Notes under the pieces: model-generated
Database searches by the model: none
Told to the model about the DNA's origin: nothing
The model's input: only the letters and a program-made list of their open reading frames with translations
Part shown: positions 39,924-56,807 of the stretch, one piece after another
Layout of the letters: the number at the start of each line of letters is the position of its first letter
Numbering within the stretch: the stretch's first letter is position 1
Position numbers and translations under genes: made by a program
Assembly: GCA_003220225.1 (NCBI GenBank)
Contig: QHRU01000049.1
Location: 21,430 to 85,429 of the forward strand
Direction: 5' to 3'
Origin: Candidatus Rokuibacteriota bacterium
Lineage (GTDB): Bacteria; Methylomirabilota; Methylomirabilia; Rokubacteriales; CSP1-6
Length of the DNA: 64,000 nt

Positions 39924-40429
39924 CGCGCGTAGTCCCGCAGCCGGCGCCGCAGCGCCGCGCGCGCCCGGGCGAGCCGCGACTTCACCGTCCCGACGGGACA
40001 CTCGAGCACCGCCGCCATCTCCACCTCGCTCAAGTCTTCCAGATCGAGCAGCACCACCGTGCGCGCCTCCTCCGAGAGGCTCATCAGCGCGGCCTCGATC
40101 TCCTCGGCCACGACCTTGCGCAGCCGGTCCAGCTCGAGGTCGTCGCGCAGCCACTCCTCGCTCGCCGCCGCGTCCGCGACGTCGACTCCGCTCACCTCGG
40201 GGCTGGCGCGCCGCCGGCGGTAGAGGCTGATGAAGGTGTTCCGGAGGATACGGAACAGCCACGCCTTGAGGTTGGTCCCGGGCGTGAAGCCCGCGGCGCC
40301 GGCCACGGCGCGGGCGTAGGTCTCCTGCACGAGATCCTCGGCGTCCGTCTCGCGGCCCGTGAGGTAACGCGCCAGCTTGTAGAGCGCGTCCACGTGGCCG
40401 AGCGCCTCGCGCGCCAGCGCCTCATGCAT
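39920..40429 (-). CDS. ECF subfamily RNA polymerase sigma-70 factor
   Basis: Sigma-70 region 2 (YKLARYLTG...DLVQETY) and region 4 ([20 protein letters not shown]). Confidence 0.85.
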
Positions 40430-40557
40430 GCCGAAACCATAGCACCGTTGACACCTTCGTCACCCTCCGCAACGCGCGAGCGCCCGAATCGTTCCCATCG
40501 CGCCATCTGGGAACGACGCGTGTATCGGCGCGTTGGCGCATGTGAAGGAGGCTGACG

Positions 40558-40875
40558 ATGACCCGCGGATTCCTGACCATGACCCTTGTGGCGGCGGTTG
40601 CGCTCGCCGCCGTCGCCGATGCGGCGACACCACCGAGCGTGCAGATCAAGGAGTTCAAGTTCGTGCCGGCGCTGCTGACCGTGCCCGTGGGCGCCACCGT
40701 GACGTGGATCAACGGCGACGAGGAGCCGCACACGGTGACGGCGACCGATCGCGCGTACACGTCCAGCGGGCTGGACCGCAAGGAAACGTACGCGCATCGC
40801 TTCACCACGCCCGGGACGTACACGTACTTCTGCGCCCTGCATCCACACATGACCGCAACCGTCGTCGTGAAGTGA
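40558..40875 (+). CDS. cupredoxin-domain copper-binding protein (plastocyanin/amicyanin-like)
   Basis: Signal peptide. Type-1 Cu ligands H...C.LH.HM (YFCALHPHM). Confidence 0.75.
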   Translation: MTRGFLTMTLVAAVALAAVADAATPPSVQIKEFKFVPALLTVPVGATVTWINGDEEPHTVTATDRAYTSSGLDRKETYAHRFTTPGTYTYFCALHPHMTATVVVK

Positions 40876-40895
40876 CGACGTCGCAGGAGGATTCC

Positions 40896-41801
40896 ATGGA
40901 ACGGCGACACTTCATGCAGTGCCTGGCCTGGGCCGGGACCGGACTGGTGTGGGCCGCGCGCGGCGGCGTGCTGTCCGCGACGGTGCTCGGCGAGGCGTCG
41001 GCCGCCGGCGCCGACTTCACGTTCGGACAGATCAGCGACACGCACGTCGGCTTCGGCGGCGAGGCCAACAAGGACGCGATGGGCACGCTGCGCGACTCCA
41101 TCGCGGGCCTCAACGCGCTCGAGCCGCGTCCGGCGTTCGTGCTGCACACGGGCGACCTGTCCCACGGACAGAAGCCCGGCGCCTTCGACACGCTCGCGGA
41201 GTCGCTGAAGGCCGTGAGGACGGAGAAGATCGTCTACATCCCCGGCGAGCACGACGTGGCCATCGATGGCGGCAAGGAATTCCTGAGCCGCTACGGCGCC
41301 GGCACCTACGAGAACCGCGGCTACCGATCGTTCGACTACCGCGGCGTCCACTTCGTCGGTCTCGTGAACGTGCTGGCGTACAAGCCGGGTGTGGGCGGCG
41401 CCCTCGGTGACGAGCAGCTCGACTGGCTGCGGAAGGATCTCGAGCCGCTCACGGCGAGCACCCCCCTCGTCGTCTTCTCCCACGTGCCGCTCTGGGCCGT
41501 GTATCCGGCATGGGGCTGGACCACGGCCGACGGCGAGCAGGTGATCGGCATGCTGCGCCGCTTCGGCTCGGTCACGGCTCTCAACGGTCACATCCACCAG
41601 GTGCTCCAGAAGGTCGAGGGGAACATCACCTTCCACTCGGCGCGGTCGACGGCCTTCCCGCAGCCCGCGCCCGGTGCGGCGCCGACGCCGGGGCCGATGA
41701 AGGTGGAGGCCGGACAGCTGCGCCGCCTGCTCGGCGTGCGCGAGGTCCATTACGTGGAGGGCACGGCGCCGCTGGCCGTCGTCGAGCGCCCGCTCGCGTA
41801 G
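40896..41801 (+). CDS. metallophosphoesterase (calcineurin-like phosphatase), TAT-secreted
   Basis: AGGAGG RBS. Twin-arginine motif MERRHFMQCLAWAG. Motifs GDxHVG, GDLSHG and GEHD. Confidence 0.75.
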   Translation: MERRHFMQCLAWAGTGLVWAARGGVLSATVLGEASAAGADFTFGQISDTHVGFGGEANKDAMGTLRDSIAGLNALEPRPAFVLHTGDLSHGQKPGAFDTLAESLKAVRTEKIVYIPGEHDVAIDGGKEFLSRYGAGTYENRGYRSFDYRGVHFVGLVNVLAYKPGVGGALGDEQLDWLRKDLEPLTASTPLVVFSHVPLWAVYPAWGWTTADGEQVIGMLRRFGSVTALNGHIHQVLQKVEGNITFHSARSTAFPQPAPGAAPTPGPMKVEAGQLRRLLGVREVHYVEGTAPLAVVERPLA

Positions 41802-41821
41802 CCGCTATACTCGCGGCGCCG

Positions 41822-42718
41822 ATGATCGTCGTCGCCGCGAATCCTTACAGCGGGGCCTCCGACAATCGCCGCCGCGTCGAGGCGCTGGCGCGCGAGCTCG
41901 CCGCGCTCGGTGAGCACCCGTGCGTCGTGTGGGGCGCGCGCGAGCGCGCGGCGATGCTGGGCGACCGCGCGGCGATGACCGGCTGCCGCGCCGTCGTCGC
42001 CGCCGGCGGCGACGGCACCGTCGCGCAGGTGATCAACGAGCTGCCGCCCGGCACGCCACTCGCCGCGTTCCCCGCCGGCAACGAGAACCTCTTCGCATCC
42101 GCCTACGGCTTCGCCGACGATCCCGCCGCGCTGGCGCGGGCCCTGGCGGCCGGACGCACGCGCACGCTCGACCTCGGCCGCGCGTCGGGGCCGGGGCGGA
42201 GCCGCCTCTTCGCGCTGATGCTCAGCGCCGGGCTGGACGCGGAGGTCGTGCGCCGCCTCATGGCGTGGCGGACGACCGGGTCGACGCTCCGCCGCGTGCG
42301 GCGCGCCTCGTACGTCGCGCCGCTCGCCGCCTCGCTCTTCACGTATCGCCATCCGCCCGTGCGAGTGGTCGCGGGCGAGGCCGCGGCGAGCGGCGCCTAC
42401 TGCGTCGTCGCCAACGCGCCCGCGTACGCGCTCGACCTGCCGCTGGCGCCCGGCGCCCGCGCCGACGACGGCGCGCTCGACTGGGTGGTCTTCGAGCGCG
42501 GCGGTCTCGCGGCGCTCGCGAGCTACTCGTGGGCGGTGTGGCGCGGCCGCCATCTGGCGCGCGACGACGTGCGCATGGGCCGCGCGACGCGGCTCACCCT
42601 CGACGCGGCGGCGCCGGTCCCGGTGCAGGCGGACGGCGATCCGCTGGGGACGACGCCGGTGGAGGTGGACGTGGTGCCGGGCGCGCTGACGCTGATCACG
42701 TCGGGTCGTGGCGGCTGA
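41822..42718 (+). CDS. diacylglycerol kinase catalytic domain (DAGK_cat / YegS-like lipid kinase) protein
   Basis: ATP-binding AAGGDGTV motif. 298 aa. Confidence 0.72.
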   Translation: MIVVAANPYSGASDNRRRVEALARELAALGEHPCVVWGARERAAMLGDRAAMTGCRAVVAAGGDGTVAQVINELPPGTPLAAFPAGNENLFASAYGFADDPAALARALAAGRTRTLDLGRASGPGRSRLFALMLSAGLDAEVVRRLMAWRTTGSTLRRVRRASYVAPLAASLFTYRHPPVRVVAGEAAASGAYCVVANAPAYALDLPLAPGARADDGALDWVVFERGGLAALASYSWAVWRGRHLARDDVRMGRATRLTLDAAAPVPVQADGDPLGTTPVEVDVVPGALTLITSGRGG

Positions 42719-43012: not shown

Positions 43013-43171
43013 CTAGCGCTTGGACGTCTGCTTGAAGTGCGCGGCGAGCGCGTCCATCACGCGGGCCAGCGCTTCGCTCTCGGTGCGGCCGGTCGCGGTG
43101 ACCTTGTACTCGATGGCCTCGGCCACCCACTCGCCGCCGTCGTTCTTGTAGACCTCCACCTCGAACTGCAT
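43013..43171 (-). CDS. HicB-like (UPF0150) antitoxin-fold small protein, orphan
   Basis: Start moved to MQFEVEVYKNDGGEWVAEAIEY... (HicB_lk_antitox-type). No HicA partner adjacent. Confidence 0.45.
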   Translation of the reverse strand: MQFEVEVYKNDGGEWVAEAIEYKVTATGRTESEALARVMDALAAHFKQTSKR

Positions 43172-43226
43172 CGGCGGCAGTCTATAGCACGGTGTATCAT
43201 CGGGCAACTTTCGACGGGAGGATGCC

Positions 43227-44207
43227 ATGTCGGTCTTCGTCACGCGCGACGAGACGCTGCCGCCGGCCTACTCGCAGGCGCTCGAGTCGCACGCGCTCCC
43301 ACCGCTGTGGACCGCGCTGCACGTCCTGCTGCCGAAGGAGCGCGTCACCGCCGCCGTGCCGCACCGCTGGTCGTGGCGGGAGGCGCGGCCGCTGCTGCAC
43401 GAGGCGGCGCGCCTGGTGCCGATCGAGCAGGCCGAGCGCCGCGTGCTCGTGCTCGAGAACCCCGGTTTGAAGGGCATGTACCGGATCACCTCGACGCTCT
43501 TCGCGGGGCTCCAGGTGATCCTGCCCGGCGAGACGGCGCCGAGCCACCACCACACGCCCGCCGCGCTGCGCCTCATCGTGGAGGGCGAAGGCGCGTTCAC
43601 CACGGTGGACGGCATCAAGTGCACGATGGAGCGCGGCGACTTCATCATCACGCCGCCGATGCGCTGGCACGATCACGGCCACGAGGGCGCCACGCCTGTT
43701 GTCTGGCTGGACGGCCTGGACATCCCGCTCGTGCGCGCGTTCGACGCGTCGTGGGTGTCGCCGCTGCGTCCGGCGCGCGTGCCGGAGCCGGCGAGCGACG
43801 CGGCGCAGGCGGAGTTCCGCTGGCCCTGGCGCGCGACACGGGGCGCGCTGGAGGGGCTGGCGGCGAGCACGCCGAAAGACCGGCCGGTCACGCGCGCCTA
43901 CGTGACGCTCACGGGCGCGCCGCCGGTGGCGACCATGGGCGCCGACGCGCACTGGCTGCGGCCAGGGGAGCGAGCGCGAGCGGGCCGCTCGACGGCGGGC
44001 CGCGTCTTCCACGTGATCGAGGGCCGCGGCCGTAGCCGTATCGGCGAGACCGAGCTCGCGTGGGAGCCGGGCGATACGTTCGTGGCCCCGCCGTGGCACT
44101 GGATCCAGCACGACAACGGCAGCGCCGGCGAGCCGGCGTGCCTGTTCTCGTTCAACGACGAGCCCGCGATCCGCGCGCTGGGCCTCTGGCAGGAGGAGCG
44201 CCCCTGA
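43227..44207 (+). CDS. gentisate 1,2-dioxygenase-like bicupin
   Basis: Two cupin modules. Metal ligands HHH in SHHHTPAALRL, and PPMRWHDHGHEG. Confidence 0.75.
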   Translation: MSVFVTRDETLPPAYSQALESHALPPLWTALHVLLPKERVTAAVPHRWSWREARPLLHEAARLVPIEQAERRVLVLENPGLKGMYRITSTLFAGLQVILPGETAPSHHHTPAALRLIVEGEGAFTTVDGIKCTMERGDFIITPPMRWHDHGHEGATPVVWLDGLDIPLVRAFDASWVSPLRPARVPEPASDAAQAEFRWPWRATRGALEGLAASTPKDRPVTRAYVTLTGAPPVATMGADAHWLRPGERARAGRSTAGRVFHVIEGRGRSRIGETELAWEPGDTFVAPPWHWIQHDNGSAGEPACLFSFNDEPAIRALGLWQEERP

Positions 44208-44218
44208 CCGCGCGAACA

Positions 44219-44581
44219 TTGCTGGGATCGTCGCTGACCATTATGATCGTCGCCGCCGGTGCTCCGGCCACAGCGATGCAGGCGAGCGTCGATCCCCGGG
44301 TCGAGGCCGAGGTCGCCCAGGGCCGCAGCCGGGTCCTCGTGGAGCTGCGCATTCCCGACGGTGTGCGGCCGGACGGGGAGCGGCGCCGGGCCATCGCACG
44401 CGCCCAGGACGACGTCCTGTCTCGTCTGCGGCGTACCGATTTCAGGCTCGTCCGCCGGTTCGAGAGCACGGCGTTCCTGGGGCTCGAGATCGGCCCATCC
44501 GCGCTCGCGGCGCTGCGAGCGATGGGGGACGTCGTCGCCAGCATCGTCCCGGATTCCGTGCTCCGGCCCTCCGACCGCTAG
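44219..44581 (+). CDS. hypothetical secreted protein with peptidase-inhibitor I9 (subtilisin propeptide)-like fold
   Basis: Pattern RVLVELRIPDG...FRLVRRFESTAFLGLEIGPSALAALRAMGDVVASIVPD resembles I9 propeptides. The start (TTG at 44219 or ATG at 44242) is uncertain. Confidence 0.35.
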   Translation: MLGSSLTIMIVAAGAPATAMQASVDPRVEAEVAQGRSRVLVELRIPDGVRPDGERRRAIARAQDDVLSRLRRTDFRLVRRFESTAFLGLEIGPSALAALRAMGDVVASIVPDSVLRPSDR

Positions 44582-44596
44582 GAGCCCCCCAATCTT

Positions 44597-45040
44597 CTAG
44601 GCGGGTGGGCCGGCCGCGCGCCAGGCGAGCACCCGGTCGGCGTACAGCCGCAGCACGACGCCCTCGCGCTCCAGGGCCATCGTGCGGTACTGCGCGTACT
44701 TCGCGCGCAGCAGCTCGAGCGCGCGCGTGAAGTCGGCGCCCGCGTTCAGCACGTCGGCGTGGCCCTCGACGCTCACCCACGCCAGGCGCGTCCAGTCCTC
44801 GTCCCACACGTCGACGAGGAGCGAGGCGTGGGGGTTCTCGCGCACGTTGCGCAGCCGGCGCAGGTCGCGCGTGCGCTTGGGCTTGTCGTCCACGGCGGAG
44901 TAGAGCGCGGCGCCGTCGAAGGCGAAGCACACGGGGACGAGCAGAGGACGGCCGGCGGCGTCGGCGGTCGCCAGCCGGCCGACGCGGGCCTCGCGGAGCA
45001 TCGCGAGGGCCCACGCCGGCGCGGAGGCGGGCGGGCTCAC
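44597..45040 (-). CDS. PPOX class (pyridoxamine 5'-phosphate oxidase-like) F420-dependent enzyme family protein
   Basis: Split-barrel motif AMLREARVGRLATADAAGRPLLVPVCF. GTG start overlaps the upstream LLM stop. Confidence 0.65.
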   Translation of the reverse strand: MSPPASAPAWALAMLREARVGRLATADAAGRPLLVPVCFAFDGAALYSAVDDKPKRTRDLRRLRNVRENPHASLLVDVWDEDWTRLAWVSVEGHADVLNAGADFTRALELLRAKYAQYRTMALEREGVVLRLYADRVLAWRAAGPPA

Positions 45041-45876
45041 TACCTGATCAGCTTCGCGTACTGATCGAGCAGCGGCAGGACCTTGTCGCGCGGCTCGGGG
45101 GGCAACAGCAAGATCGATCGCGTGACGCCGGCGGAGGCGAACTGGTCGAGCACGGCCTTGTCCGGCGGGGTGGCGAAGGCGGAGACCGAGATCGTCTTCA
45201 TGTCGCGCCCGGCCTTGGCCGCGCGCGCCTTGAGGTCCTTCAACCCCTCCAGCACCTTCTCGGGAGCGCGGCCGCGCGGGTACCAGCCGTCGCAGAAGTC
45301 CACCACGCGCTGCAGCGTGTAGCCGCTCTCGCCGCCGAGCAGGATCGGCGGGTACGGCTTCTGCGCGGGCTTGGGCCAGGCCCAGATCGGGTCGAAGTTC
45401 ACGAACTGGCCGTGGAACTCGGCGACGTCCCTCGTCCAGATCTCCTTCAGCGCGCGCACCTGCTCCTCGAGCCGCTTGAAGCGGGACTTGAACTCGGTGC
45501 CGTGATGCTCCATCTCCTCGGCGTTCCAGCCGCCGCCCAGCCCGAACTCGAAGCGCCCGTGCGAGAGCAGGTCGAGGCTCGCGACGGACTTGGCCGTCGT
45601 GATCGTGTCGCGCTCGATGATCAAGCAGATCCCCGTGCCGACGCGCAGCGTCTTCGTCGCCGCCGCGGCCGCCGTCAGCGCGACGAAGGGATCGAGGGTG
45701 TGCTTGTACTGCTCCGGCAGCTGCTGGCCGCCCGCGAACGGGCTGCGCCGGCTGGTCGGGATGTGCGTGTGCTCGGGCACCCACAGCGACTCGAAGTTGC
45801 GCGCCTCGGTCTCGCGCGCCAGCTCGTCGATGCGGATCGCGTACTCGGTGGCGAAGATGCAGACGCCGATGTGCAT
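45040..45876 (-). CDS. LLM class F420-dependent oxidoreductase
   Basis: LLM TIM-barrel motifs. 278 aa. Confidence 0.8.
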   Translation of the reverse strand: MHIGVCIFATEYAIRIDELARETEARNFESLWVPEHTHIPTSRRSPFAGGQQLPEQYKHTLDPFVALTAAAAATKTLRVGTGICLIIERDTITTAKSVASLDLLSHGRFEFGLGGGWNAEEMEHHGTEFKSRFKRLEEQVRALKEIWTRDVAEFHGQFVNFDPIWAWPKPAQKPYPPILLGGESGYTLQRVVDFCDGWYPRGRAPEKVLEGLKDLKARAAKAGRDMKTISVSAFATPPDKAVLDQFASAGVTRSILLLPPEPRDKVLPLLDQYAKLIR

Positions 45877-45892
45877 GCGGGATCCTCCTGGT

Positions 45893-46312
45893 TCAGCGGG
45901 TCGGGGTGGCGCCCGGCGCGGGTGGGCTGGGCACGAGGGAAAAGTGCGTGTGCGTGGCGAGCCAGCGGCCGCCGCGGCGCTCGAAGGCGAGGGTGCACCG
46001 CCCGGGGCGCGGGAACGTGCCGCCGTCGGCGAGGGTGCCGCGCGAGTCCCAGGTGGCGGCGATCCAGCCGCGATCGCCCGCGATCGCGCCGCGCGCGTTG
46101 TCGACGTCGATCGTGAAGTCGCGGATGACCGGCCACACGCGGTGCCACTGCTCCTTCTCGATCACGTCGAGGCCCTGGACGAAGGGCACGACGGTGCCGA
46201 AGGCGACGATGTCTGGCGCGCACAGCCGGCGTCCGGCTGCGAAATCGACGGCGCGCACGCAGGTCTGCCAGGCGCGCAGCCAGTCGCGGAGGGGCGCGAG
46301 GTCGTCGGCCAT
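45893..46312 (-). CDS. SnoaL-like / NTF2-like domain protein
   Basis: 139 aa with NTF2-like cone fold signature. Confidence 0.55.
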   Translation of the reverse strand: MADDLAPLRDWLRAWQTCVRAVDFAAGRRLCAPDIVAFGTVVPFVQGLDVIEKEQWHRVWPVIRDFTIDVDNARGAIAGDRGWIAATWDSRGTLADGGTFPRPGRCTLAFERRGGRWLATHTHFSLVPSPPAPGATPTR

Positions 46313-47250
46313 CAGGACGGGAAGATCGCGTCGGGCATGAAGGCGGAGACGATCCAGTTCGGCGCGTCCACGATCTCGCTGATCTTGAGGTCGGCCGCCA
46401 CCGAGCAGATGACGTAGGCCTCCTCACGCGAGAAGCCGCGCGTCTCCACCAGGTGGTCGATCATGTAGCGCACCGCCTGCTGCGCGGCCGCGAAGAGATC
46501 GGGCCCGTGCGCGGTCGTCGCGTAGTGCGGGCCGTGGTTGGTCGCGTGCGATGGCGGCGCCGGCGTGACGAGCTGCGGCTCGGGCAACCGCCGGCCGCGG
46601 CGCAGGCCGAACCTCAGCGTCACGCGCCCCATCATCTCGACGGCGGTGACACACACCTCGCCGTCGCCCTGCGCGGCGTGGGCGTCGCCGACGCTGAACA
46701 GCGCGCCCTCGACGAGCACGGGCAGGAAGAGCGTCGCGCCGGCGACGAGCTGCTTGATGTCCATGTTGCCGCCCGCGCGCCGCGGCGGCATCGTGCTGTG
46801 GCCGCCCGGCTCGTCGAGCGCCACGCCCATGACGCCGGGGAACGGCGCCAGCGGCACCGCCACGCGGTGGTCCATGCGCGCGTGCCGTCCATCGGAGATG
46901 TCCCAGATCTGGAGGAACGGCTTGGCGAAGTCGGTCTCGGGCAGCAGCCCTCGCCCGGGGCGGATGGCTGTCCAGCCGAAGTCCGCGCCCGGCTGCACAT
47001 CGAGGATCTCGATCACGAGCGTGTCGCCCGGCCGCGCGCCGCGGATCTTCACGGGGCCGGTGAGCGGGTGACCACGGAACGGGCCGCGGCGCAGGACGTC
47101 GTCGTGCGTCGAGCCCTTCGAGTAGAAACGGTTGGCGGCGTCCCGCGTCTCGAAGACCACGGTGTCGCCGGGATCGACCTCGAGCCGTGGCGGCAGCGCG
47201 TTGTTCCACTCCTGGTGGATCTCCTCGTGGCCGAGCTGGTGGGTCTTCAC
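46312..47250 (-). CDS. acetamidase/formamidase (FmdA_AmdA family)
   Basis: Start set to a GTG (VKTHQLGHEE...). FmdA/AmdA core motifs. Confidence 0.78.
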   Translation of the reverse strand: MKTHQLGHEEIHQEWNNALPPRLEVDPGDTVVFETRDAANRFYSKGSTHDDVLRRGPFRGHPLTGPVKIRGARPGDTLVIEILDVQPGADFGWTAIRPGRGLLPETDFAKPFLQIWDISDGRHARMDHRVAVPLAPFPGVMGVALDEPGGHSTMPPRRAGGNMDIKQLVAGATLFLPVLVEGALFSVGDAHAAQGDGEVCVTAVEMMGRVTLRFGLRRGRRLPEPQLVTPAPPSHATNHGPHYATTAHGPDLFAAAQQAVRYMIDHLVETRGFSREEAYVICSVAADLKISEIVDAPNWIVSAFMPDAIFPS

Positions 47251-48092
47251 GCGGCGAGCTCGGTCCACGCCACCATGCCCGTGCCCGAGCGCCAGGCGAC
47301 GGCCGGCATGTAAGCGAGCACGTCGGCGGGACCGCGCGTGAACGCGAGCGCCACGATCCAGGCGAGCAGCTCCGCGGTGCCGCCGGATCCGGCGGCCTCC
47401 AGCCGCTCGAGCGTGCACTCGCGCAGCAGCCGCTCGTGGTCACCGAGCTTGAGGAGATCGAGGAACCAGCGGTCGAAGTCCTCGTCCACCCAGAAATAGC
47501 GCGGCCCGCCGGGCTCGTGCGAGAGCCCGCCGGTGGCCACCACGGCCACGCGCAGCGGAGCCGGATAGGCGCGGATGACCTCGCGCAGCACGATGCCGAC
47601 CCAGTAGGCGCGCTCGGGGCGCGGGATCGGCGGCACCGTGCAGTTCATGGTGACGGGCACCAGACGGAAGCGCGCGTCGGGGTTCAGGTAGTGCGTCGGC
47701 ACCGAGATGCCGTCGTCGAACTGCATCTCGCCGCCCAGGTGGGCGAGCGCCAGCCCGCGCCGCGCGCCCTCGTTGACGAGGAAGCGCGCGAGCCCCGGCT
47801 CGCCGGGCACGCGGTACTTCTCCATCCCGAGCCACTCGTCGAACCAGTCGGCGGGCCCCACGTGCGCCTCGGCGATGCCGACCGTGTACTCGGGCGTGTT
47901 GTTCATCGGCCAGTTGAGCAGGTGGTCGTTGCTGAACATCACGAGCACGTCGGGTCGCGCAGCCTCGAGTCGGCGCCGCATCTCCGCGGTGGCGCCCAGC
48001 GCGAGCTGCTGGTACTCCTCCGACGCGCGGTCGAACCAGCCGGTGAGGCCGGGCGAGTGCGTCATGGCCATGGCGGCGACGATCTGGGCCAC
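47247..48092 (-). CDS. class III extradiol ring-cleavage dioxygenase, LigB-type catalytic subunit
   Basis: GTG start at VAQIVAAMAMTHSPG (LigB N-terminal His). Stop overlaps the formamidase start. Confidence 0.75.
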   Translation of the reverse strand: MAQIVAAMAMTHSPGLTGWFDRASEEYQQLALGATAEMRRRLEAARPDVLVMFSNDHLLNWPMNNTPEYTVGIAEAHVGPADWFDEWLGMEKYRVPGEPGLARFLVNEGARRGLALAHLGGEMQFDDGISVPTHYLNPDARFRLVPVTMNCTVPPIPRPERAYWVGIVLREVIRAYPAPLRVAVVATGGLSHEPGGPRYFWVDEDFDRWFLDLLKLGDHERLLRECTLERLEAAGSGGTAELLAWIVALAFTRGPADVLAYMPAVAWRSGTGMVAWTELAA

Positions 48093-48094
48093 CG

Positions 48095-48463
48095 TCAGCT
48101 CCGCTCGCGCCGTGCCGGGGAGACCGTCGTCTCGAGCCGCGCTTGCAGCGCCAGCGCCTTCGCCGTCTCTTCGGGGAAGGCGCGCGTGTAGCACTCGAGG
48201 GCGGCGCTGGCGTTGCTGTTCTGCGCCGCGCCGAAGAAGAGGCGCAGGATCTGCGGCACGTAGTACTGGTGGACGCCGAGGTCCATCAGGCGCCTGGGGT
48301 CCTTCGCCTGCACCGCGTCGATCTCCGCGCGGCTCAGCCCGAACTCGCCCGCGAGGGCCTCGAAATCGGTCAGCCAGCGCTCGCGCAGCCGCGCGTCGCG
48401 GCGCACGTGGAACATCATCTGGTTCAGCGGCAGCGTCTTGTCGCAGCGCTCGACGTTACCCAT
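48095..48463 (-). CDS. protocatechuate 4,5-dioxygenase alpha-subunit-like (LigA family)
   Basis: About 120 aa with LigA-like HQYYVPQILRLFFG motif. Sits immediately upstream of LigB. Confidence 0.68.
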   Translation of the reverse strand: MGNVERCDKTLPLNQMMFHVRRDARLRERWLTDFEALAGEFGLSRAEIDAVQAKDPRRLMDLGVHQYYVPQILRLFFGAAQNSNASAALECYTRAFPEETAKALALQARLETTVSPARRERS

Positions 48464-48874
48464 TTATCGTGCGAGGGGGGCTACGCCCCCCTCGGACTCC
48501 CCCGGGCTGGCCTTCAGCACCTTCGGGTTCACCTTGAGGAACATGATCACGCAGCGCTCGGCGCCGAGGTTGCGCACGTCGTGCGGCACGTTCTTCGGGA
48601 ACTTCACGATCGCGCCCGCCGGCACCACGACCTCGCGGCCGTCGATGGACATGTTCGCCGCGCCCTGCAGCACGAAGATCGCCTCCTCTTCCTTCGGATG
48701 GCTGTGCATCACGGTGGACTGACCGGGCTCGTAGCAGGCGATCTCCGACCAGAGCTGATCGGTCTTGAAGAGCATCTTCCGCACGCGCTTGTCGGGAGCG
48801 AACGCTTTCAGCGTGTGCAGGTCGAACACCTGCGCGACGCCCGTGGTGGCGGCGACGGCGACTTGCTCGTCCAT
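48464..48874 (-). CDS. cupin domain protein
   Basis: Single cupin with His ligands HSHPKEEE...H. Confidence 0.62.
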   Translation of the reverse strand: MDEQVAVAATTGVAQVFDLHTLKAFAPDKRVRKMLFKTDQLWSEIACYEPGQSTVMHSHPKEEEAIFVLQGAANMSIDGREVVVPAGAIVKFPKNVPHDVRNLGAERCVIMFLKVNPKVLKASPGESEGGVAPLAR

Positions 48875-48961
48875 GGGGCCTCCTGCGGCTGCCTAGTGTA
48901 CCGCGGGCCGTCGAATCCAAGAGCCGCGGCGCGGCATCTCTACGGATGGGAGGCGAAGACC

Positions 48962-49273
48962 ATGATGCAGGCATTGATCGCTCCCGTGGTGCTGGCGACG
49001 TTGGTGGGGCTGTGGCTCGCGTGGCTCAAGCGGCGCGAGCGTGCGGAAGATCGCGCGCTGACAGTACGGGCGGAGATCCAGAGCGCGGTCAATCGCGCGC
49101 TGGAGGGCGAGTCGCTGCTGGCCGTGCAGGTGGAGCCGCCGTCAAGCTTCCATTGCGGGCGCGTCGTGCTCTCCACGCCGACGGGCTACGAGTGGCTCGT
49201 GCACGAGGCGTGGAATCCGGTGATCGAGCACGCCCCGAAGGACTACGAGGTCGTGCTGCGCCACGCCGCCTGA
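48962..49273 (+). CDS. hypothetical membrane-anchored protein
   Basis: RBS GGGAGG. N-terminal TM helix. GC3 bias. Confidence 0.4.
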   Translation: MMQALIAPVVLATLVGLWLAWLKRRERAEDRALTVRAEIQSAVNRALEGESLLAVQVEPPSSFHCGRVVLSTPTGYEWLVHEAWNPVIEHAPKDYEVVLRHAA

Positions 49274-49431
49274 GCTGGTCTGATCTGGCTGGTCTGTTCC
49301 TGATCACGGGCGTGGTCAGAAACAGGCCGCTGACGATGTTCTAACCACCCTTCAGGTAGACCAAAAGTCGTATTTCCGAGTACTTACAAGCCTGGTAACT
49401 CGTGGTACCAGGATTGCGTTTGCACTGCCGC

Positions 49432-49767
49432 ATGGTCGACGTGATCGTGCAAATCACGGGGCTGGTGGTGCTGACCGTCGCGGTGCTGAATCTGGCGCAA
49501 GGGGCGCTGGTGGCGGCGCGGTTGGTGGCGCACGTCACGCGACGTTACCCGCACCTCCGGCTTGATCTGTGGTTCCCGCGCTGGGAAGAGGTACGCGACG
49601 CGCACGTGTGGCTCGCGACCTGGCGAGGAATCCTGCGTTCTGGTGATCCGACAATGGCGGCCATCCGTACGGACGGCCGTATCGTCATAGCCCGCCACGT
49701 TCAGCTCATGCTCTCGTCACAGGCATGGGTGATGGTGGTGGCCACGATGGTGCCGCGGCTCTCGTAG
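49432..49767 (+). CDS. hypothetical protein
   Basis: ORF downstream of the low-GC region. Weak support only. Confidence 0.28.
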   Translation: MVDVIVQITGLVVLTVAVLNLAQGALVAARLVAHVTRRYPHLRLDLWFPRWEEVRDAHVWLATWRGILRSGDPTMAAIRTDGRIVIARHVQLMLSSQAWVMVVATMVPRLS

Positions 49768-50992: not shown

Positions 50993-51709
50993 ATGTTCGG
51001 AGCGGTTCGGGCGCCCCGCGTATACGAGCACATCGTCGCGCAGATCGAGCGCGCGATTTACGAGGGACGGTTCGCGCACGGCGACAAGCTCCCGCCCGAG
51101 CGTCAGCTCGTGCGCGAGTTCGGCGCCAGCCGCGTGGCCGTGCGGGAGGCGCTGCGCGCGCTCGAGCACCGCGGCCTCGTCGAGGTGCGGCAGGGGTCCG
51201 CCGGCGGCTATTTCATCCGCGAGCTGGACGCCATGCCCGTCGTGCGCGACCTGTCGACGCTCTTCCGCCTCGGCCGCGTGTCGCTGCCGCAGCTCGCGGA
51301 GGCGCGGGCCCTGCTCGAGCCGGAATCGGCGCGGCTGGCCGCCTCGCGCGTCACCGACCACGAGCTCAAGATGCTCGGCGAGTGCCTGGAGACGCGCACC
51401 GAGCCCGGGATCACCTCGCGCCGGCGCCGGGCGCTGGACGCGGAGTTCCACCGTCAGGTGGCCGCCGCCGCCCGCAATCCCGTCCACGCCGCGGTGACCC
51501 ACGCGCTCACCGCGCTGGAGATCAAGGTGGTCGCCCAGCGCGCCGAGCTCACGCCGGAGGACGACGCCGCCATCATTGCCGCGCATCTCGCGATTCACGA
51601 CGCGATCGCTCGCCGCGACGGCGACACCGCGCGCACGGCCATGTACGCGCACATCCTGGACGTCGAGCGCCGGCTCGCCCGTGGCGTCGTCACGCGCGCG
51701 GCGTCCTGA
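50993..51709 (+). CDS. GntR family transcriptional regulator (FadR/FCD subfamily)
   Basis: N-terminal wHTH (ERQLVREFGASRVAVREAL) and C-terminal FCD domain. Confidence 0.85.
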   Translation: MFGAVRAPRVYEHIVAQIERAIYEGRFAHGDKLPPERQLVREFGASRVAVREALRALEHRGLVEVRQGSAGGYFIRELDAMPVVRDLSTLFRLGRVSLPQLAEARALLEPESARLAASRVTDHELKMLGECLETRTEPGITSRRRRALDAEFHRQVAAAARNPVHAAVTHALTALEIKVVAQRAELTPEDDAAIIAAHLAIHDAIARRDGDTARTAMYAHILDVERRLARGVVTRAAS

Positions 51710-51725
51710 CCCTCGGGAGGCTCCC

Positions 51726-52937
51726 GTGAGCGCACGCCGTGCCGTGGCCACCCTCGCCGCTGCCGTCACGCTCGTCGCCGCCGCGCCCTGCGCCGCGCAG
51801 GCGCCGATCCGGATCGGCGAGATCAACTCGTTCAGCGGCATCGGCGCGCCGTTCACCGGCCCCTATCGCCAGGCCATCGAGATGGCGGTGGAGGAGGTCA
51901 ACGCCCGCGGCGGCGTGCTCGGCCGAAAGGTCGAGGTGCTCTTCCGCGACGACAAGGGGCAGCCGGCGGAGGCGGTCAAGCACGCCCAGGAGCTGGTGGC
52001 GAGCGAGAAAGTCAGTCTGATCTCCGGCACCTTCCTGTCGAACGTCGGCCTCGCCGTGTCCGACTGGGCGAAGCAGAACCGGACGCTGTTCGTCGCCGCC
52101 GAGCCGCTCACCGAGGCCATCACGTGGGCCAAGGGCCACGACCACGTCTTCCGCGTGCGACCGAACACCTACGAGCAGGGGCGCATGCTCGCCGAGAAGG
52201 CCGGCAAGCTGAAGTACGTGAAGTGGGCGACCATCGGCCCCAACTACGAGTACGGCAAGCGCGCGTGGGAAACGTTCCGCGATCGCCTCAAGGAGCTGAA
52301 GCCGGACGTGCAGGTCGTCGGCGAGCACTGGCCGACGCTGGGGAAGCTCGAGGCGGGGCCGTTCGTCACCGCCATCCTCAACCAGAACCCCGACGCGCTC
52401 TACGTGTCGCTCTTCGGCAGCGATTGGATCGCGTTCGTGCGCGAGGCCAAGAAGCGCGGGCTCTTCGACAAGACGTTCGTGGTCGGCATCCTGCTCGGCG
52501 AGCCGGAGTACATCGACCCGCTCGGCCTCGAAGCCCCCGAGGGCATGCTCGTCACCGGGTATCCCTGGTACGACATCGGCGCGCCGCCGCACAAGGACTT
52601 CGTCGCGCGCTTCACGAAGAAGTACGACAAGAACCCGGTGCTCGGCTCGCTCGTCGGCTACGTCACCTATCTCTCCATCTTCGAGGCGATCCGCAAGGCG
52701 GGCTCCACCGACACCGACAAGCTCGTGGCCGCCTTCCGCGGCCTGCGCGTGGAGACGCCGATCGGACCGATCAGCTATCGCGCGTCCGACGGGCAGTCCA
52801 CGATGGGCGCGTGGGTCGGCACCACCAAGCTCGACGCCAGGCGCGGCGTCGGGATCATGGTGAACCACGAGTACGTGCCGGGTGAAAAAGTGCTGCCGTC
52901 CGACGACGACGTGAAGAAGCTCCGAAGCGGCAACTGA
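51726..52937 (+). CDS. ABC transporter substrate-binding protein (branched-chain amino acid / amide type, Peripla_BP_6)
   Basis: GTG start with GGGAGG RBS. Signal peptide. LivJ/K-like fold. Confidence 0.8.
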   Translation: MSARRAVATLAAAVTLVAAAPCAAQAPIRIGEINSFSGIGAPFTGPYRQAIEMAVEEVNARGGVLGRKVEVLFRDDKGQPAEAVKHAQELVASEKVSLISGTFLSNVGLAVSDWAKQNRTLFVAAEPLTEAITWAKGHDHVFRVRPNTYEQGRMLAEKAGKLKYVKWATIGPNYEYGKRAWETFRDRLKELKPDVQVVGEHWPTLGKLEAGPFVTAILNQNPDALYVSLFGSDWIAFVREAKKRGLFDKTFVVGILLGEPEYIDPLGLEAPEGMLVTGYPWYDIGAPPHKDFVARFTKKYDKNPVLGSLVGYVTYLSIFEAIRKAGSTDTDKLVAAFRGLRVETPIGPISYRASDGQSTMGAWVGTTKLDARRGVGIMVNHEYVPGEKVLPSDDDVKKLRSGN

Positions 52938-52984
52938 GCCCGTCGCTCTTCCTCGTCCAGCTCCTCGCGGGGCTCGCGCACGCG

Positions 52985-54766
52985 ATGGTCCTCTTCTTCA
53001 TCGCGTCCGGGCTCTCGCTCATCTTCGGCGTGACCCGCGTCGTCAACTTCGCGCACGGGTCCTTCTACATGCTCGCCGCCTACCTCGCCTACACGCTGGC
53101 GGCGGCGCTGCCGCTGGGCGGCGCGTCCTTCTACGTGGCGGTGGCCCTCGCCGCGCTCGCCGTGGGCGCGCTCGGGACGGTGGTGGAGGTGGGCCTCCTG
53201 CGCCGCGTGTATCGTGCGCCCGAGCTCTACCAGCTGCTGCTGACCTTCGCGCTCGTGCTCGTCGTCTCCGACGTCGTCAAGCTGGTCTGGGGCAGCGAGA
53301 ACAAGACAGGGCCGAGCGCGCCCGGGCTCGGCGGCGCCGTCCGCATCGCGGGCCAGCTGGTGCCGACGTACGACCTCGCGCTCATCGCGCTCGGGCCCTG
53401 CGTGGCCGCGGCCCTCTGGTGGCTGCTCTATCGCACCCGTTGGGGCGTGCTCATCCGCGCGGCCACTCTGGACCGCGAGATGGTGGCGCTGCTGGGCGTC
53501 GACCAGGCGCGGCTGTTCACCGGTGTGTTCGCGCTCGGCTCGCTGCTCGCAGGGCTGGCGGGAGCCCTTCAAGTGCCGCGGCAGGCGCTCACCACCGTGA
53601 TGGACGCGGCGATCATCACCGAGGCCTTCGTGGTCGTCGTCGTGGGCGGCATGGGCTCGGTGCCCGGCGCGCTCCTGGCGGCCGTCGTCATCGGCGTCAT
53701 CGACGCTTTCGGCGTGCTCGTGCTCCCGCGCGCGTCGCTCGTGCTGACGTTCGTGGTGATGGCCGTCGTGCTCGTCGTGCGTCCGTGGGGTCTGCTGGGG
53801 CGGCCCGAGGCCCAGGCGCGGTCGGCGGGCGGCGCGATCACCGCCGGCCGCGGCGTCGGCGTCCCCCGCTGGCTGATCGCCGTCCTCGTCGCGGTCCTGC
53901 TCGTCGTGCCGCCGCTGCTGCCCACGTTCTACGTCTGGGTGCTCGTCGAGATCCTCGCGTTCGCGCTCTTCGCGGCGAGCCTCCACCTCCTGATGGGGAC
54001 GGGCGGCATGGTCTCGTTCGGCCACGCGGCGGCCTTCGGCCTGGGCGCGTACGGCGCGGCGCTGCTCGTGCGGTGGGCGAAGGCGCCGATGCTCGTCGCG
54101 CTCGCGGCCGCGCCGGTGACGGCCGCGCTGGCCGCCGTGGTCATCGGCTTCTTCTGCGTGCGGCTGTCGTCGATCTACTTCGCGATGCTCACGCTCGCCT
54201 TCGCCCAGATCGCCTACGCGATCGTGCACCAGTGGTACGACGTGACGGGCGGTGACAACGGCCTCCTCGGCATCTGGCCCGCGCCCTGGCTCGCGTCGCC
54301 GGTCCGCTACTACTACCTCGCCCTCGCCGCGTGCGGCGCCGGTCTCGCCGCGCTGGCTGCGATCGGCCGCGCGCCGTTCGGGCTCACGCTGCGCGCCGCG
54401 CGCGACCACGCGCGCCGCGCGGAGGCGGTCGGGATCGACGTGCACGCGCACCAGTGGCGGGCCTTCGTCGTCGCCGGCTTCTTCGGCGGGCTCGCGGGCG
54501 GCACCTTCGTGTTCCTCAAGGGCAGCGTGTTCCCCGAGTCGCTGGCGGTGCCGGTCTCGGTGGAGCCGCTCGTGATGGTGCTGCTGGGGGGCGTGCACTC
54601 GCTGGCGGGCGCGCCGCTCGGCGCCGCGCTCTACAAGCTGCTCGACACCGTGGTGACGCGTTACACGGAATACTGGCAGCTCGTGCTCGGCGTCATCCTC
54701 GTGGCCCTGGTGCTTGTGTTTCCGCGCGGGATCCTCGGCGTGCTGGGGGCGCGCGAGCGTGGCTGA
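52985..54766 (+). CDS. fused branched-chain amino acid ABC transporter permease (LivH-LivM fusion)
   Basis: 593 aa with two permease modules. The true start likely lies about 15 codons upstream at a non-ATG codon. Confidence 0.8.
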   Translation: MVLFFIASGLSLIFGVTRVVNFAHGSFYMLAAYLAYTLAAALPLGGASFYVAVALAALAVGALGTVVEVGLLRRVYRAPELYQLLLTFALVLVVSDVVKLVWGSENKTGPSAPGLGGAVRIAGQLVPTYDLALIALGPCVAAALWWLLYRTRWGVLIRAATLDREMVALLGVDQARLFTGVFALGSLLAGLAGALQVPRQALTTVMDAAIITEAFVVVVVGGMGSVPGALLAAVVIGVIDAFGVLVLPRASLVLTFVVMAVVLVVRPWGLLGRPEAQARSAGGAITAGRGVGVPRWLIAVLVAVLLVVPPLLPTFYVWVLVEILAFALFAASLHLLMGTGGMVSFGHAAAFGLGAYGAALLVRWAKAPMLVALAAAPVTAALAAVVIGFFCVRLSSIYFAMLTLAFAQIAYAIVHQWYDVTGGDNGLLGIWPAPWLASPVRYYYLALAACGAGLAALAAIGRAPFGLTLRAARDHARRAEAVGIDVHAHQWRAFVVAGFFGGLAGGTFVFLKGSVFPESLAVPVSVEPLVMVLLGGVHSLAGAPLGAALYKLLDTVVTRYTEYWQLVLGVILVALVLVFPRGILGVLGARERG

Positions 54767-55514
54767 GCGCGCCCCCGTCCTGGAGGTCGAGAACGTCCGG
54801 CGCGCGTTCGGCGGGGTGCGCGCGGTCGACGGCGTGTCGTTCGCCCTCGAGCGCGGCGAGATCCGCGCCCTCATCGGCCCCAACGGCGCCGGCAAGTCAA
54901 CCTTCTTCGACATCCTCACGGGTCAGCTCCGCGCCGACGCGGGCGAGGTGCGCTGGCGCGGTCGTCCCATCGGCGGGCTGCCGCCGCACGCGATCTGGCG
55001 CCTGGGCATCAGCCGCACCTTCCAGATCACGGCCACGTTCGCGACGCTCACCGTCCTCGAGAACGTGCAGGTCGCGCGGCTGTCGCACGCGGGTCGGAGC
55101 CGCGTGCTGCTGATTCCCGCCGCGCGGCTGGAGATCGCGCCGTCGCGCGCGCTGCTGGAGCAGGTGGGGCTCGCCGAGCAGGCCACGCGGGCGGCCGGGG
55201 TGCTCGCCTACGGCGATCTCAAGAAGCTGGAGCTCGCGATCGCGCTCGCCAACGATCCCGCGCTGCTGCTGCTCGACGAGCCCACGGCGGGGATGGCGCC
55301 CGGCGAGCGCGGCGCGCTGATGGCGCTGACGGCGCGGATCGCGCGTGAGCGCGGGCTCACCGTGCTCTTCACCGAGCACGACATGGACGTCGTCTTCGCG
55401 GTCGCCGAGCGGATCATGGTGCTGCACCAGGGCCGCGTGATCGCCGACGGTCCGCCGGCCGCCGTGCGGGCCGACCGCGAGGTGCAGGCCGTGTACCTCG
55501 GCGAGGATCCGTGA
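54759..55514 (+). CDS. ABC transporter ATP-binding protein (LivG-like)
   Basis: Walker A GPNGAGKST. ABC signature. GTG start overlapping the permease stop. Confidence 0.85.
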   Translation: MAERAPVLEVENVRRAFGGVRAVDGVSFALERGEIRALIGPNGAGKSTFFDILTGQLRADAGEVRWRGRPIGGLPPHAIWRLGISRTFQITATFATLTVLENVQVARLSHAGRSRVLLIPAARLEIAPSRALLEQVGLAEQATRAAGVLAYGDLKKLELAIALANDPALLLLDEPTAGMAPGERGALMALTARIARERGLTVLFTEHDMDVVFAVAERIMVLHQGRVIADGPPAAVRADREVQAVYLGEDP

Positions 55515-56203
55515 TGTTCGAGCTGGCGGACGTCCACGCGGTCTACGGCCGCAGCCGCGTGCTGCACGGCGTGAGCCTGCGCGCCGGCGAGGGCGAAGTG
55601 GTCGCGCTGCTCGGACGCAACGGCGCCGGGAAGTCCACCACGCTCAAGGCGATCGTGGGCGTCGTCGAGGTGACGGCGGGCGACATCCGCTTCGAGGGGC
55701 GCTCGCTGCGCGGCGTGCCGACGCATCGCGTGGCCCGGCTCGGGATCGGGCTCGTGCCGGAAGACCGGCGGATCTTCGCCGATCTCACGGTGGCGGAAAA
55801 TCTCTTGGTAGGTGCGCGGCCGGACAGCGGCTGGACGGTCGATCGCGTCTTCGGCCTCTTCCCCAAGCTCGCCGAGCTCGCGCGCCAGCGCGGCGGCAGC
55901 CTCTCGGGCGGCGAGCAGCAGATGCTGACGATCGCACGCACGCTGATGACGGGCCCGCGCCTGCTGCTCCTCGATGAGCCCTCGGAGGGGCTGGCGCCGG
56001 TCGTCGTCGCCGCGCTCGCCGAGAACGTGGCCGCTCTGAAGCGCCAGGGGCTGACCATTCTCATGGCCGAGCAGAACGTGAAGTTCGCCCGCCGGCTGAC
56101 CGACCGCGCCTACATCATCGAGAAGGGCCAGATCCGCTTCGAGGGGACGATGGCCACCCTCGACGCCGACGAGTCGCTGCGCCGCGCGTACCTGTCTGTT
56201 TGA
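55511..56203 (+). CDS. ABC transporter ATP-binding protein (LivF-like)
   Basis: Walker A GRNGAGKST. Signature LSGGEQQ. Confidence 0.85.
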   Translation: MMFELADVHAVYGRSRVLHGVSLRAGEGEVVALLGRNGAGKSTTLKAIVGVVEVTAGDIRFEGRSLRGVPTHRVARLGIGLVPEDRRIFADLTVAENLLVGARPDSGWTVDRVFGLFPKLAELARQRGGSLSGGEQQMLTIARTLMTGPRLLLLDEPSEGLAPVVVAALAENVAALKRQGLTILMAEQNVKFARRLTDRAYIIEKGQIRFEGTMATLDADESLRRAYLSV

Positions 56204-56412: not shown

Positions 56413-56459
56413 TCGCGGGTATGATTTTTGCGGTCTGTTCCGGTCGATGGCGGGCGGAG

Positions 56460-56736: not shown

Positions 56737-56807
56737 CGCGCGCTCGCGCGCGAGGGTTGCGTCCTTCCGCCCGATTTGACACACTCGCGCGACGGAGGCC
56801 CCGCGCG

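Follow-up and report, generated by a model that had tools for sequence, protein, structure and literature searches.

Why should genes for a two-subunit, ring-cleaving dioxygenase (LigA and LigB) run directly into a gene for an amidohydrolase of the FmdA/AmdA family, and what substrate would call for both enzymes? We examined this question in a 64,000-nucleotide stretch of a Candidatus Rokuibacteriota genome (contig QHRU01000049.1, positions 21,430 to 85,429), which we refer to as the window. We propose that the locus contains a seven-gene catabolic operon whose products cleave the ring of an aromatic acid that contains nitrogen, be it an N-heteroaromatic diol or pyridone of the dihydroxypyridine type or a compound of the o-aminophenol type. 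We give this proposal about an even chance.

Organization of the locus

Because the G+C content of the window is about 72%, we called genes by third-position GC. A previous, sequence-only reading of this region had listed nine open reading frames (ORFs); all nine were present where it placed them, with third-position GC of 0.86 to 0.98, and Pfam and NCBIfam agreed with its assignments except for a small ORF that it had labeled I9-like. To count conservation, we used tblastn to compare the window proteins with the best 80 loci from a one-genome-per-species scan with LigB (519 relatives; the best 80 were all Rokubacterial, with 74 to 94% identity), and the denominators given here for Rokubacterial loci are the loci with enough flanking sequence.

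The nine genes had been treated as one unit, but the locus consists of two. The core unit is a set of seven co-directional, tightly packed minus-strand genes that runs from 48874 down to 44597 in the order cupin-LigA-LigB-FmdA-SnoaL-like-LLM-PPOX, where LLM is a luciferase-like oxidoreductase (Table 1). All junctions are overlaps or gaps of 0 to 16 nucleotides. As read from the sequence, the TAA of the cupin gene is followed immediately by the ATG of LigA. A 2-nucleotide gap separates LigA from LigB, the LigB stop and FmdA start overlap in GTGA, the FmdA stop and SnoaL-like start overlap in TGATG, a gap of 16 nucleotides precedes LLM, and the LLM stop and PPOX start have one base in common (TAGTG). 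Two of these overlaps, FmdA with LigB and PPOX with LLM, had been pointed out before, and both can be read directly. The seven genes are translationally coupled. The bicupin gene and the small ORF lie on the opposite strand, convergent with the operon, and the bicupin stands beside the operon in only 9 of 43 Rokubacterial loci and in no locus examined outside Rokubacteria; we therefore rejected it as an operon member.

LigB and its clade

Both subunits exceed their Pfam gathering scores (113.8 bits against 26.3 for the LigB domain, PF02900; 42.8 bits against 25.3 for the LigA domain, PF07746), which places the enzyme among the two-subunit class III dioxygenases. The best matches of the window LigB in PDB were 1B4U_B (the reference LigB, E 6e-20) and 3WKU (DesB, E 1e-16), at approximately 30% identity. 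When we searched structures with a family profile, LigB (E 8e-48), DesB (E 9e-45), and MhpB (E 4e-44) were matched strongly, the aminophenol dioxygenases AmnB and CnbCb at E of about 1e-13 (AmnB 7e-14), and DODA structures weakly (E 2e-9). A phmmer search of LigB against the aminophenol dioxygenases gave no match even at E ≤ 10. Judged by these comparisons, the window LigB is much nearer to the LigB/DesB/MhpB group than to the aminophenol dioxygenases.

The key residues of the window LigB are H12, N55-D56-H57, D126-D127, H192, and E241. The iron ligands H12, H57, and E241 and the catalytic H192 align with H12, H61, E242, and H195 of the reference LigB, and they are invariant in alignments of 12 and 219 sequences. 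In contrast, the second active-site histidine (His127 in LigB, His124 in DesB) is replaced by Asp127 within an FDDG motif. This "DD" signature occurs in all of the approximately 130 homologs with at least 41% identity, whereas nearly all more distant sequences in the 219-sequence alignment have the canonical "DH." The catechol-acting enzymes LigB, DesB, and MhpB keep the histidine, and AmnB and CnbCb carry "DY" at the same position. That the one characterized lineage acting on a nitrogen-bearing ring, that of AmnB, also lacks this histidine is suggestive of a link to nitrogen, although it is not proof. Given the shared signature, we assign the window LigB to a distinct "DD" clade. Within this clade, the Rokubacterial LigBs form a single cluster at 50% identity, and the next full-length relatives among 1.84 billion cluster representatives searched were 49, 48, and 43% identical. 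Homologs with 84 to 99% identity came from soil metagenomes and from metagenome-assembled genomes (MAGs) named Methylomirabilota, Rokubacteria, or Tectomicrobia; an exact lookup of the window LigB sequence found no record. Some proteobacterial members are LigB-LigA fusions.

Assignment to any of the established enzymes of this class failed. For protocatechuate 4,5-dioxygenase, the beta subunit model NF009912 gave 85.6 of 837 bits, and the alpha subunit models TIGR02792 and NF009918 gave 18.1 of 108.6 and 24.4 of 161 bits. The gallate dioxygenase (GalA/DesB) model NF009904 gave 90.8 of 412 bits, and the window subunits are encoded by separate genes. The NCBIfam equivalogs for MhpB and HpaD were far under their cutoffs. 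We also rejected 2-aminophenol 1,6-dioxygenase (AmnAB/CnbCab), for which there was no phmmer match and a weak profile match, and because the partner subunit here is LigA rather than a LigB paralog. The sequence-only reading had raised the possibility that LigAB would group firmly with the protocatechuate 4,5-dioxygenases and that the formamidase would turn out to be an unrelated neighbor; instead, the equivalogs fail and FmdA recurs.

Amide hydrolases beside the clade

The sequence-only reading had coupled LigAB to a formamidase, and this coupling is borne out: FmdA follows the same clade in 42 of 63 Rokubacterial loci, in 15 of 44 metagenomic loci, and in Variovorax, Bradyrhizobium, and a Corynebacterium plasmid (Table 2). 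The metagenomic loci come from a scan of 80 loci of the proteobacterial branch, 44 of them with usable flanks, in which we considered 5 kb around LigB. Besides FmdA, these flanks held a PF04199 cyclase (11/44), a Bosea-type amidohydrolase (10/44), an isochorismatase (4/44), or a creatininase (4/44), and at least one gene of an amide-hydrolase family was present in 33 of the 44. Where FmdA is missing, other C-N hydrolases are found in its place. Among the families concerned, PF04199 includes KynB-type arylformamidase and isatin hydrolase, the isochorismatase family includes NicF, RutB, and nicotinamidase, the creatininase family includes ArfB, and 5-oxoprolinase is likewise an amide or lactam hydrolase. 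FCD/GntR regulator genes flank the clade in Actinomadura, Bradyrhizobium, Bosea, three further loci (L090, L093, and L098), and 14 of the 44 metagenomic loci.

Table 2. Gene contexts of "DD" clade members outside Rokubacteria
Source	Gene context
Variovorax sp. VNK109	TctC, LigB-LigA fusion, FmdA (4-nucleotide overlap)
Bradyrhizobium sp. U87765	GntR/FCD divergent, then LigB-LigA-FmdA-Abhydrolase_3-DctP
L090	GntR, Amidohydro_3, LigBA fusion, PF04199 cyclase, FmdA, branched-chain-type ATP-binding cassette (ABC) transporter; isochorismatase and flavin adenine dinucleotide (FAD) monooxygenase upstream
C. glutamicum plasmid p48A	IclR, hydantoinase/oxoprolinase A and B (HyuAB), LigB, LigA, FmdA
L098	GntR, Abhydrolase_3, and tripartite ATP-independent periplasmic (TRAP) transporter divergent, then LigB-LigA-FmdA-HpaB
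Bosea plasmid	creatininase, ABC transporter, FCD, then LigA-LigB-isochorismatase-amidohydrolase
L097	Amidohydro_2, LigA, LigB, isochorismatase, with TctABC
L092, L093	LigB-LigA-Amidohydro_2
Actinomadura, Vineibacter	LigB-LigA alone
L102	GntR, then LigB-LigA-binding protein-DUF1989-FmdA-ABC

Because genes for FCD/GntR regulators, for carboxylate- or amide-type transporters, and for hydrolases of amides, lactams, or formyl groups accompany the clade in Rokubacteria, Alpha- and Betaproteobacteria, and Actinobacteria, we consider the link between LigAB and the amidase to be real. Our main argument for a nitrogen-containing substrate is that unrelated C-N hydrolase families have been recruited repeatedly and interchangeably beside this one clade. 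The TctC and TRAP binding proteins in turn indicate that the substrate is a carboxylic acid.

The FmdA of the window had been called an FmdA/AmdA formamidase. The family holds, with a PF03069 match of 214 bits, whereas the specific activity does not: the formamidase equivalog NF045496 gave 144.8 of 500 bits, under its cutoff, and the protein is a short-form amidase. Its best PDB match was the acetamidase 2II1 (E 1e-40), and its catalytic-looking motifs, GGNxD and DxHxxQGxGE, did not vary among the 10 family members compared. FmdA relatives encoded apart from any LigAB occur in Deinococcus, in Alicyclobacillus, and in an amide-uptake operon on Klebsiella and E. coli plasmids. The closest enterobacterial relatives of the window FmdA are in this operon (locus L181, on E. 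coli plasmid pKL53-L, with similar sequences in 746 Klebsiella plasmid records), which also encodes an AmiC-like binding protein, an ANTAR regulator, a peptide-type ABC transporter, and creatininase fragments. From its gene content, it is apparently a widespread, uncharacterized amide-uptake module.

Conservation in Rokubacteria

LigA directly precedes LigB in 76 of 77 Rokubacterial loci, and the cupin gene is directly upstream of LigA in 66 of 77 and in 0 of the non-Rokubacterial loci examined. Besides FmdA, the loci with enough flanking sequence contained LLM (39/63), PPOX (41/63), and the SnoaL-like gene (25/63). FmdA, LLM, and PPOX occurred together in 37 of the 63 loci and were jointly absent from 19. 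This arrangement is far beyond chance. On the basis of these co-presence counts, we distinguish three functional units: a cupin-LigA-LigB core, a co-inherited FmdA-(SnoaL)-LLM-PPOX tail, and the separate bicupin unit. Some MAGs hold both a full operon and a trio-only copy, and the neighbors of the trio-only copies vary. Such trio-only paralogs include L023, L044, L045, L065, L069, and L075 to L077; in L045, the trio seemingly follows putative RidA-like and polysaccharide-deacetylase/PuuE-like genes, as judged by eye from N-terminal sequences.

The cupin, SnoaL-like, LLM, and PPOX genes had no counterpart in any non-Rokubacterial locus examined, and we interpret them as Rokubacteria-specific additions to the module. 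LLM passed the curated cutoff of TIGR03619 (258.6 bits against 166.9), and its PDB matches were LLMs that include the F420-dependent Mer, fHMAD, and Fgd. PPOX passed that of TIGR03668 (149.2 bits against 119.15), with PDB matches to 4ZKY and 5JV4 at E 1e-21. A 2021 review lists F420 biosynthesis genes for Rokubacteria genomes and describes the roles of F420 outside Actinobacteria as lacking experimental study (PMC8498797). The window contains four LLM paralogs, at 18482-19516 (+), 33403-34410 (-), 45040-45876 (-), and 59842-60834 (+), which suggests a large repertoire of LLM, possibly F420, enzymes in this genome.

The cupin translation contains an HxH...E...H motif, and a Shine-Dalgarno sequence, AGGAGG, lies ahead of the gene at 48884-48879. 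Farther upstream, the motif GGTACACTAGG, which includes TACACT at 48900-48895, was found at the same position in 17 of 17 Rokubacterial loci inspected, while the remaining spacer was divergent. We interpret GGTACACTAGG as probably the -10 element, of TANNNT type, of the operon promoter. Scans for consensus sigma-70 promoters and for terminators found nothing informative, and a search for riboswitches or other known RNAs upstream of the operon found none.

Proposed pathway and comparison with known systems

In the route that we propose, an Fe(II)-containing LigAB, together with the co-inherited cupin, would cleave the ring beside a hydroxyl group and thereby create or expose an N-formyl or amide bond; were the cut adjacent to a ring nitrogen, the product would carry an N-formyl or amide group. 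FmdA would then hydrolyze that bond, or a small amide released from the product such as formamide, to yield formate or an acid plus ammonia. The NTF2-like (SnoaL-like) protein may isomerize the unsaturated chain. Finally, LLM and PPOX would reduce or oxidize the enone or aldehyde product in an F420-linked redox step, or they could instead keep an auto-oxidizable polyhydroxy substrate reduced.

The sequence-only reading had suggested an N-formyl or N-acetyl amino-aromatic substrate, kynurenine- or aminophenol-like. The amidase link favors the nitrogen-bearing part of this suggestion. The partner of LigB is LigA and not an AmnA-type subunit. A kynurenine- or aminophenol-like compound is one option only, and an N-heteroaromatic diol is no less likely.

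Precedents exist for a ring cleavage of this kind. PydA, a LigB-family 3,4-dihydroxypyridine dioxygenase, forms an N-formyl compound, which is in turn the substrate of a hydrolase (PMC7356986). The PydA/PydB system of Rhizobium sp. TAL1145, which acts in 3-hydroxy-4-pyridone degradation, follows the same logic as LigAB then FmdA; unlike the window operon, it has no reported LigA or FmdA and no known involvement of F420. In the maleamate pathway of nicotinate and picolinate degradation, which runs through 2,5-dihydroxypyridine, ring cleavage beside the nitrogen likewise gives an N-formyl or amide product. Roles of this pathway (NicC, NicX, NicD, and NicF; PicC to PicF) recur beside the clade, where the correspondence is one of family role only: a flavin monooxygenase or Amidohydro_2 decarboxylase, a ring-opening dioxygenase, a candidate deformylase, and an isochorismatase-type amidase. 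However, NicX is aminopeptidase-like and the deformylase of the maleamate pathway is an alpha/beta hydrolase, whereas LigAB and FmdA would take these roles here, and we saw no maleate isomerase.

Among characterized enzymes, LigAB of Sphingobium SYK-6 (1B4U) and DesB/GalA (3WKU) have in common with the window enzyme the LigA plus LigB architecture, the iron ligands, and the equivalent of the catalytic His195. The window LigB differs from them in its low identity, in the change of His127 (His124 in DesB) to Asp, and in a shorter C terminus, and the window operon has an amidase, a cupin, and F420-family enzymes in place of ligC, ligI, ligJ, and ligK. AmnAB and CnbCab (8IHG and 3VSG) belong to the same LigB superfamily, act on nitrogen-bearing substrates, and have also lost the second histidine, but their small subunit is an inactive LigB paralog and not LigA. 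The FmdA formamidase of Methylophilus, the acetamidase AmdA, and 2II1 share with the window FmdA the Pfam FmdA_AmdA domain and both motifs; the window FmdA differs from the formamidase as a 312-amino-acid short form encoded in a ring-cleavage operon rather than in an amide or urea uptake operon.

Several observations weigh against this proposal. Its support comes from gene context and sequence. The nearest solved structures of the window LigB are protocatechuate and gallate dioxygenases, several clade members lie beside Amidohydro_2, short-chain dehydrogenase/reductase (SDR), or aldolase genes in arrangements that resemble the lig pathway, and the Actinomadura copy adjoins pca genes. Nineteen of the 63 Rokubacterial copies are cupin-LigAB trios without the amidase or F420 genes. 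The LigAB-linked FmdAs of Proteobacteria and Corynebacterium are 44 to 59% identical to one another and only 33 to 41% identical to the window FmdA, which is 46 to 52% identical to stand-alone small-amide hydrolases; on these values, we rejected orthology with the proteobacterial LigAB-linked FmdAs. Because the window FmdA is nearer to the stand-alone enzymes, it was recruited separately, from a different branch of the family; orthology therefore gives no ground for transferring a function to it, and it may act on a different substrate. Separate recruitment is consistent with simple chemistry at this step, directed at a small amide or formyl group. For the cupin and the SnoaL-like protein, the pathway roles given above are guesses. 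A match of LLM and PPOX to F420 family models is no proof that they use F420, and none of the approximately 55 genes scanned in the 64-kb window was an F420 biosynthesis (cof/fbi) gene.

Alternative explanations

A first alternative is an ordinary lignin-type pathway, in which LigAB would act on a nitrogen-free dihydroxy-aromatic acid (protocatechuate, gallate, or a 2,3-dihydroxybenzoate-like compound), FmdA and the other hydrolases would be lactone or ester hydrolases like LigI, and LLM would be a LigC-like hemiacetal dehydrogenase. Its case includes LigB (E 6e-20; profile 8e-48) and DesB/GalA as the nearest solved relatives, a true LigA subunit as the partner, carboxylate-type transporters, and some clade members that are followed by Amidohydro_2 (the LigI/LigJ family), with SDR, HpcH aldolase, or TctC genes nearby. 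However, the protocatechuate 4,5- and gallate-dioxygenase equivalogs fail widely (86 of 837, 91 of 412, and 18 of 109 bits), the histidine that those enzymes use is Asp across the whole clade, and the operon lacks the LigC, LigI, LigJ, and LigK set. In addition, the partners that recur (FmdA, PF04199 cyclase, isochorismatase-like, creatininase, oxoprolinase-like, and DUF1989 proteins) belong to C-N hydrolase families. We consider a lignin-type pathway unlikely.

We regard as very improbable a nine-gene route for nitro- or amino-aromatics that includes the bicupin, in which the F420 enzymes would reduce a nitro compound or quinone to the aminophenol substrate of LigAB. In Actinobacteria, nitro compounds and quinones are indeed substrates of F420H2-dependent PPOX-family reductases, the gentisate dioxygenase family includes 5-aminosalicylate and 5-nitrosalicylate dioxygenases, and the clade resembles the aminophenol dioxygenases in lacking the second active-site histidine. 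Against this route, the convergent bicupin accompanies the operon in 9 of 43 Rokubacterial loci and in no other lineage, LLM and PPOX, the two genes at the end of the operon, occur in no version of the module outside Rokubacteria, and LigB is paired with LigA and only weakly related to AmnB.

The least probable of the explanations is a biosynthetic module that would make a secondary metabolite of the 4-alkylproline or betalamic-acid type by extradiol cleavage of a catechol derived from dihydroxyphenylalanine (DOPA) or tyrosine, cyclization, and F420H2-dependent imine or ene reduction: in the biosynthesis of lincomycin and pyrrolobenzodiazepines, F420-dependent LLM reductases act after an extradiol enzyme has cleaved DOPA, source records label clade members "DODA-type extradiol ring-opening dioxygenase," and the usual downstream meta-pathway genes are missing from the operon, but we found no nonribosomal peptide synthetase, polyketide synthase, methyltransferase, or tailoring genes nearby, uptake binding proteins and FCD catabolic-type regulators flank the clade in many lineages, and the DODA profile match is weak (E 2e-9 against 8e-48 for LigB).

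Surrounding genes

Table 1. Features of the operon and its surroundings, with positions in the window
Feature	Positions	Strand	Basis
Bicupin, gentisate 1,2-dioxygenase family, 326 amino acids; neighbor outside the operon	43227..44207	+	TIGR02272
Small ORF, 112-120 amino acids, hydrophobic N terminus; neighbor	44219/44243..44581	+	ORF call
PPOX-class split beta-barrel oxidoreductase, TIGR03668 (Rv0121) family, 147 amino acids; last operon gene	44597..45040	-	NCBIfam
Luciferase-like oxidoreductase (LLM), TIGR03619 (Rv2161c) family, 278 amino acids	45040..45876	-	NCBIfam
SnoaL_3/DUF4440 NTF2-like protein, 139 amino acids; optional operon member	45893..46312	-	Pfam SnoaL_3, E 2e-10
Short-form FmdA/AmdA-family amidohydrolase, 312 amino acids, GTG start	46312..47250	-	Pfam FmdA_AmdA, 214 bits
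LigB catalytic (beta) subunit, 281 amino acids, GTG start at 48092	47247..48092	-	Pfam LigB
LigA small (alpha) subunit of class III extradiol dioxygenase, 122 amino acids	48095..48463	-	Pfam LigA
Cupin, single-domain, metal-binding, 136 amino acids; first operon gene	48464..48874	-	Pfam Cupin_2, 65 bits
GGTACACTAGG motif (TACACT at 48900-48895), putative -10 element	48892..48902	-	Conserved upstream of the cupin gene
GntR/FCD regulator, candidate for the operon	50993..51709	+	Pfam GntR and FCD in syntenic loci
Branched-chain/amide-type ABC transporter (Peripla_BP_6, fused permease, two ATPases), candidate for uptake	51726..56203	+	Pfam on syntenic loci L003-L005

The bicupin matched the gentisate 1,2-dioxygenase model TIGR02272 at 320.5 bits, under the equivalog cutoff of 442.1, and PDB 2D40 at E 1.5e-72, a clear relation at the level of the family. 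Beside it lies a block of genes (39237-42718) for an ECF sigma factor, a putative anti-sigma factor, a secreted cupredoxin, a Tat-signal metallophosphoesterase, and a diacylglycerol-kinase-like protein, which is conserved in the closest relatives. The adjacency of the bicupin looks conserved because of this local synteny block and not because of a shared pathway. A 76-amino-acid ORF at 43013-43243 (-), with a borderline match to DUF7387 (25.8 of 27.9 bits), overlaps the bicupin start with its own start by 17 nucleotides. The small ORF that had been labeled I9-like had no NCBIfam match and no Pfam match even at E ≤ 5. Its single-sequence AlphaFold model (pLDDT 77) predicts a beta-alpha-beta-beta-alpha-beta domain after a disordered, hydrophobic N terminus. 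In a Foldseek search of this model against PDB, the best E value was 0.06, and prosubtilisin propeptides were among the nonsignificant matches (probability 0.66 to 0.84). The I9-like label is without sequence support and unproven.

Two small genes at 48967-49273 (+) and 49402-49767 (+), which encode approximately 103 and 121 amino acids, are divergent from the operon. A membrane helix is present at the N terminus of one product. Pfam gave no match for either gene; both are kept in syntenic Rokubacterial loci, and they lie in the stretch of lowest GC in the window (0.669). Beyond them, a co-directional plus-strand run (50993-63140) encodes the GntR/FCD regulator, the Peripla_BP_6 ABC transporter, Amidohydro_1/3, DUF1015, AA_synth (PF06684), and LLM proteins, and a molybdopterin hydroxylase; a PIG-L-type deacetylase of this run was seen in syntenic loci. 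In Bradyrhizobium-like loci, the same type of ABC transporter separates LigA from FmdA, and in L090 it follows FmdA. Because regulators, transporters, and amidohydrolases of these types flank the LigAB clade in Proteobacteria, the run may be part of the LigAB regulon.

The window contains three large subunits of molybdopterin hydroxylases (xanthine-dehydrogenase family), at 12450-14816 (-), 29749-31896 (-), and 60903-63140 (+), and a 2Fe-2S subunit at 31893-32363 (-) adjoins the second of these. Molybdopterin hydroxylases typically hydroxylate N-heterocycles beside the ring nitrogen, and by analogy those of the window would fit the proposed N-heteroaromatic substrate class. A gene with DUF222 and HNH endonuclease domains at 16327-17724 (-) has a third-position GC of 0.80, lower than that of its neighbors, and is possibly mobile or recently acquired.

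Significance

All of the component families described here are already known, and gene clusters with an unknown substrate are common. What is new is a coherent "DD" clade of LigAB, its pairing with amide hydrolases across phyla, and its union with F420-family enzymes in Rokubacteria; in open-access text, we found no literature that links LigAB to FmdA-family enzymes or describes this module. We tentatively suggest, as a possibility that we hold to be less likely than not, that "DD" LigAB is an unrecognized, multi-phylum family for nitrogen-containing aromatics, namely, dihydroxypyridine or pyridone carboxylates or o-aminophenol acids, with interchangeable amide hydrolases to remove the N-formyl or amide compounds left by ring fission, and with two F420-dependent oxidoreductases completing the route in Rokubacteria. 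The substrate can be found by experiment because the clade is present in cultivable strains of Bradyrhizobium, Reyranella, Variovorax, Vineibacter, and Actinomadura.

Rokubacteria are abundant in soil, uncultured, and large in genome size, and LigB ranks with the best conserved of their accessory genes, with 74 to 94% identity over the best 80 species-level genomes and often two copies. If the substrate is an ordinary catechol, then the operon would be a routine variant of lignin-type catabolism. If it is an N-heteroaromatic or aminophenol-type acid, then the clade would add a new enzyme family to the turnover of nitrogen and carbon from pyridine- or aniline-like compounds in soil, the change from His to Asp in the active site would gain a functional explanation, and F420 would have a concrete role outside Actinobacteria. 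Should the suggestion of a "DD" family for nitrogen-containing aromatics be true, this would be the first F420-linked pathway of aromatic ring cleavage and the first defined physiological function of F420 in this uncultured phylum.

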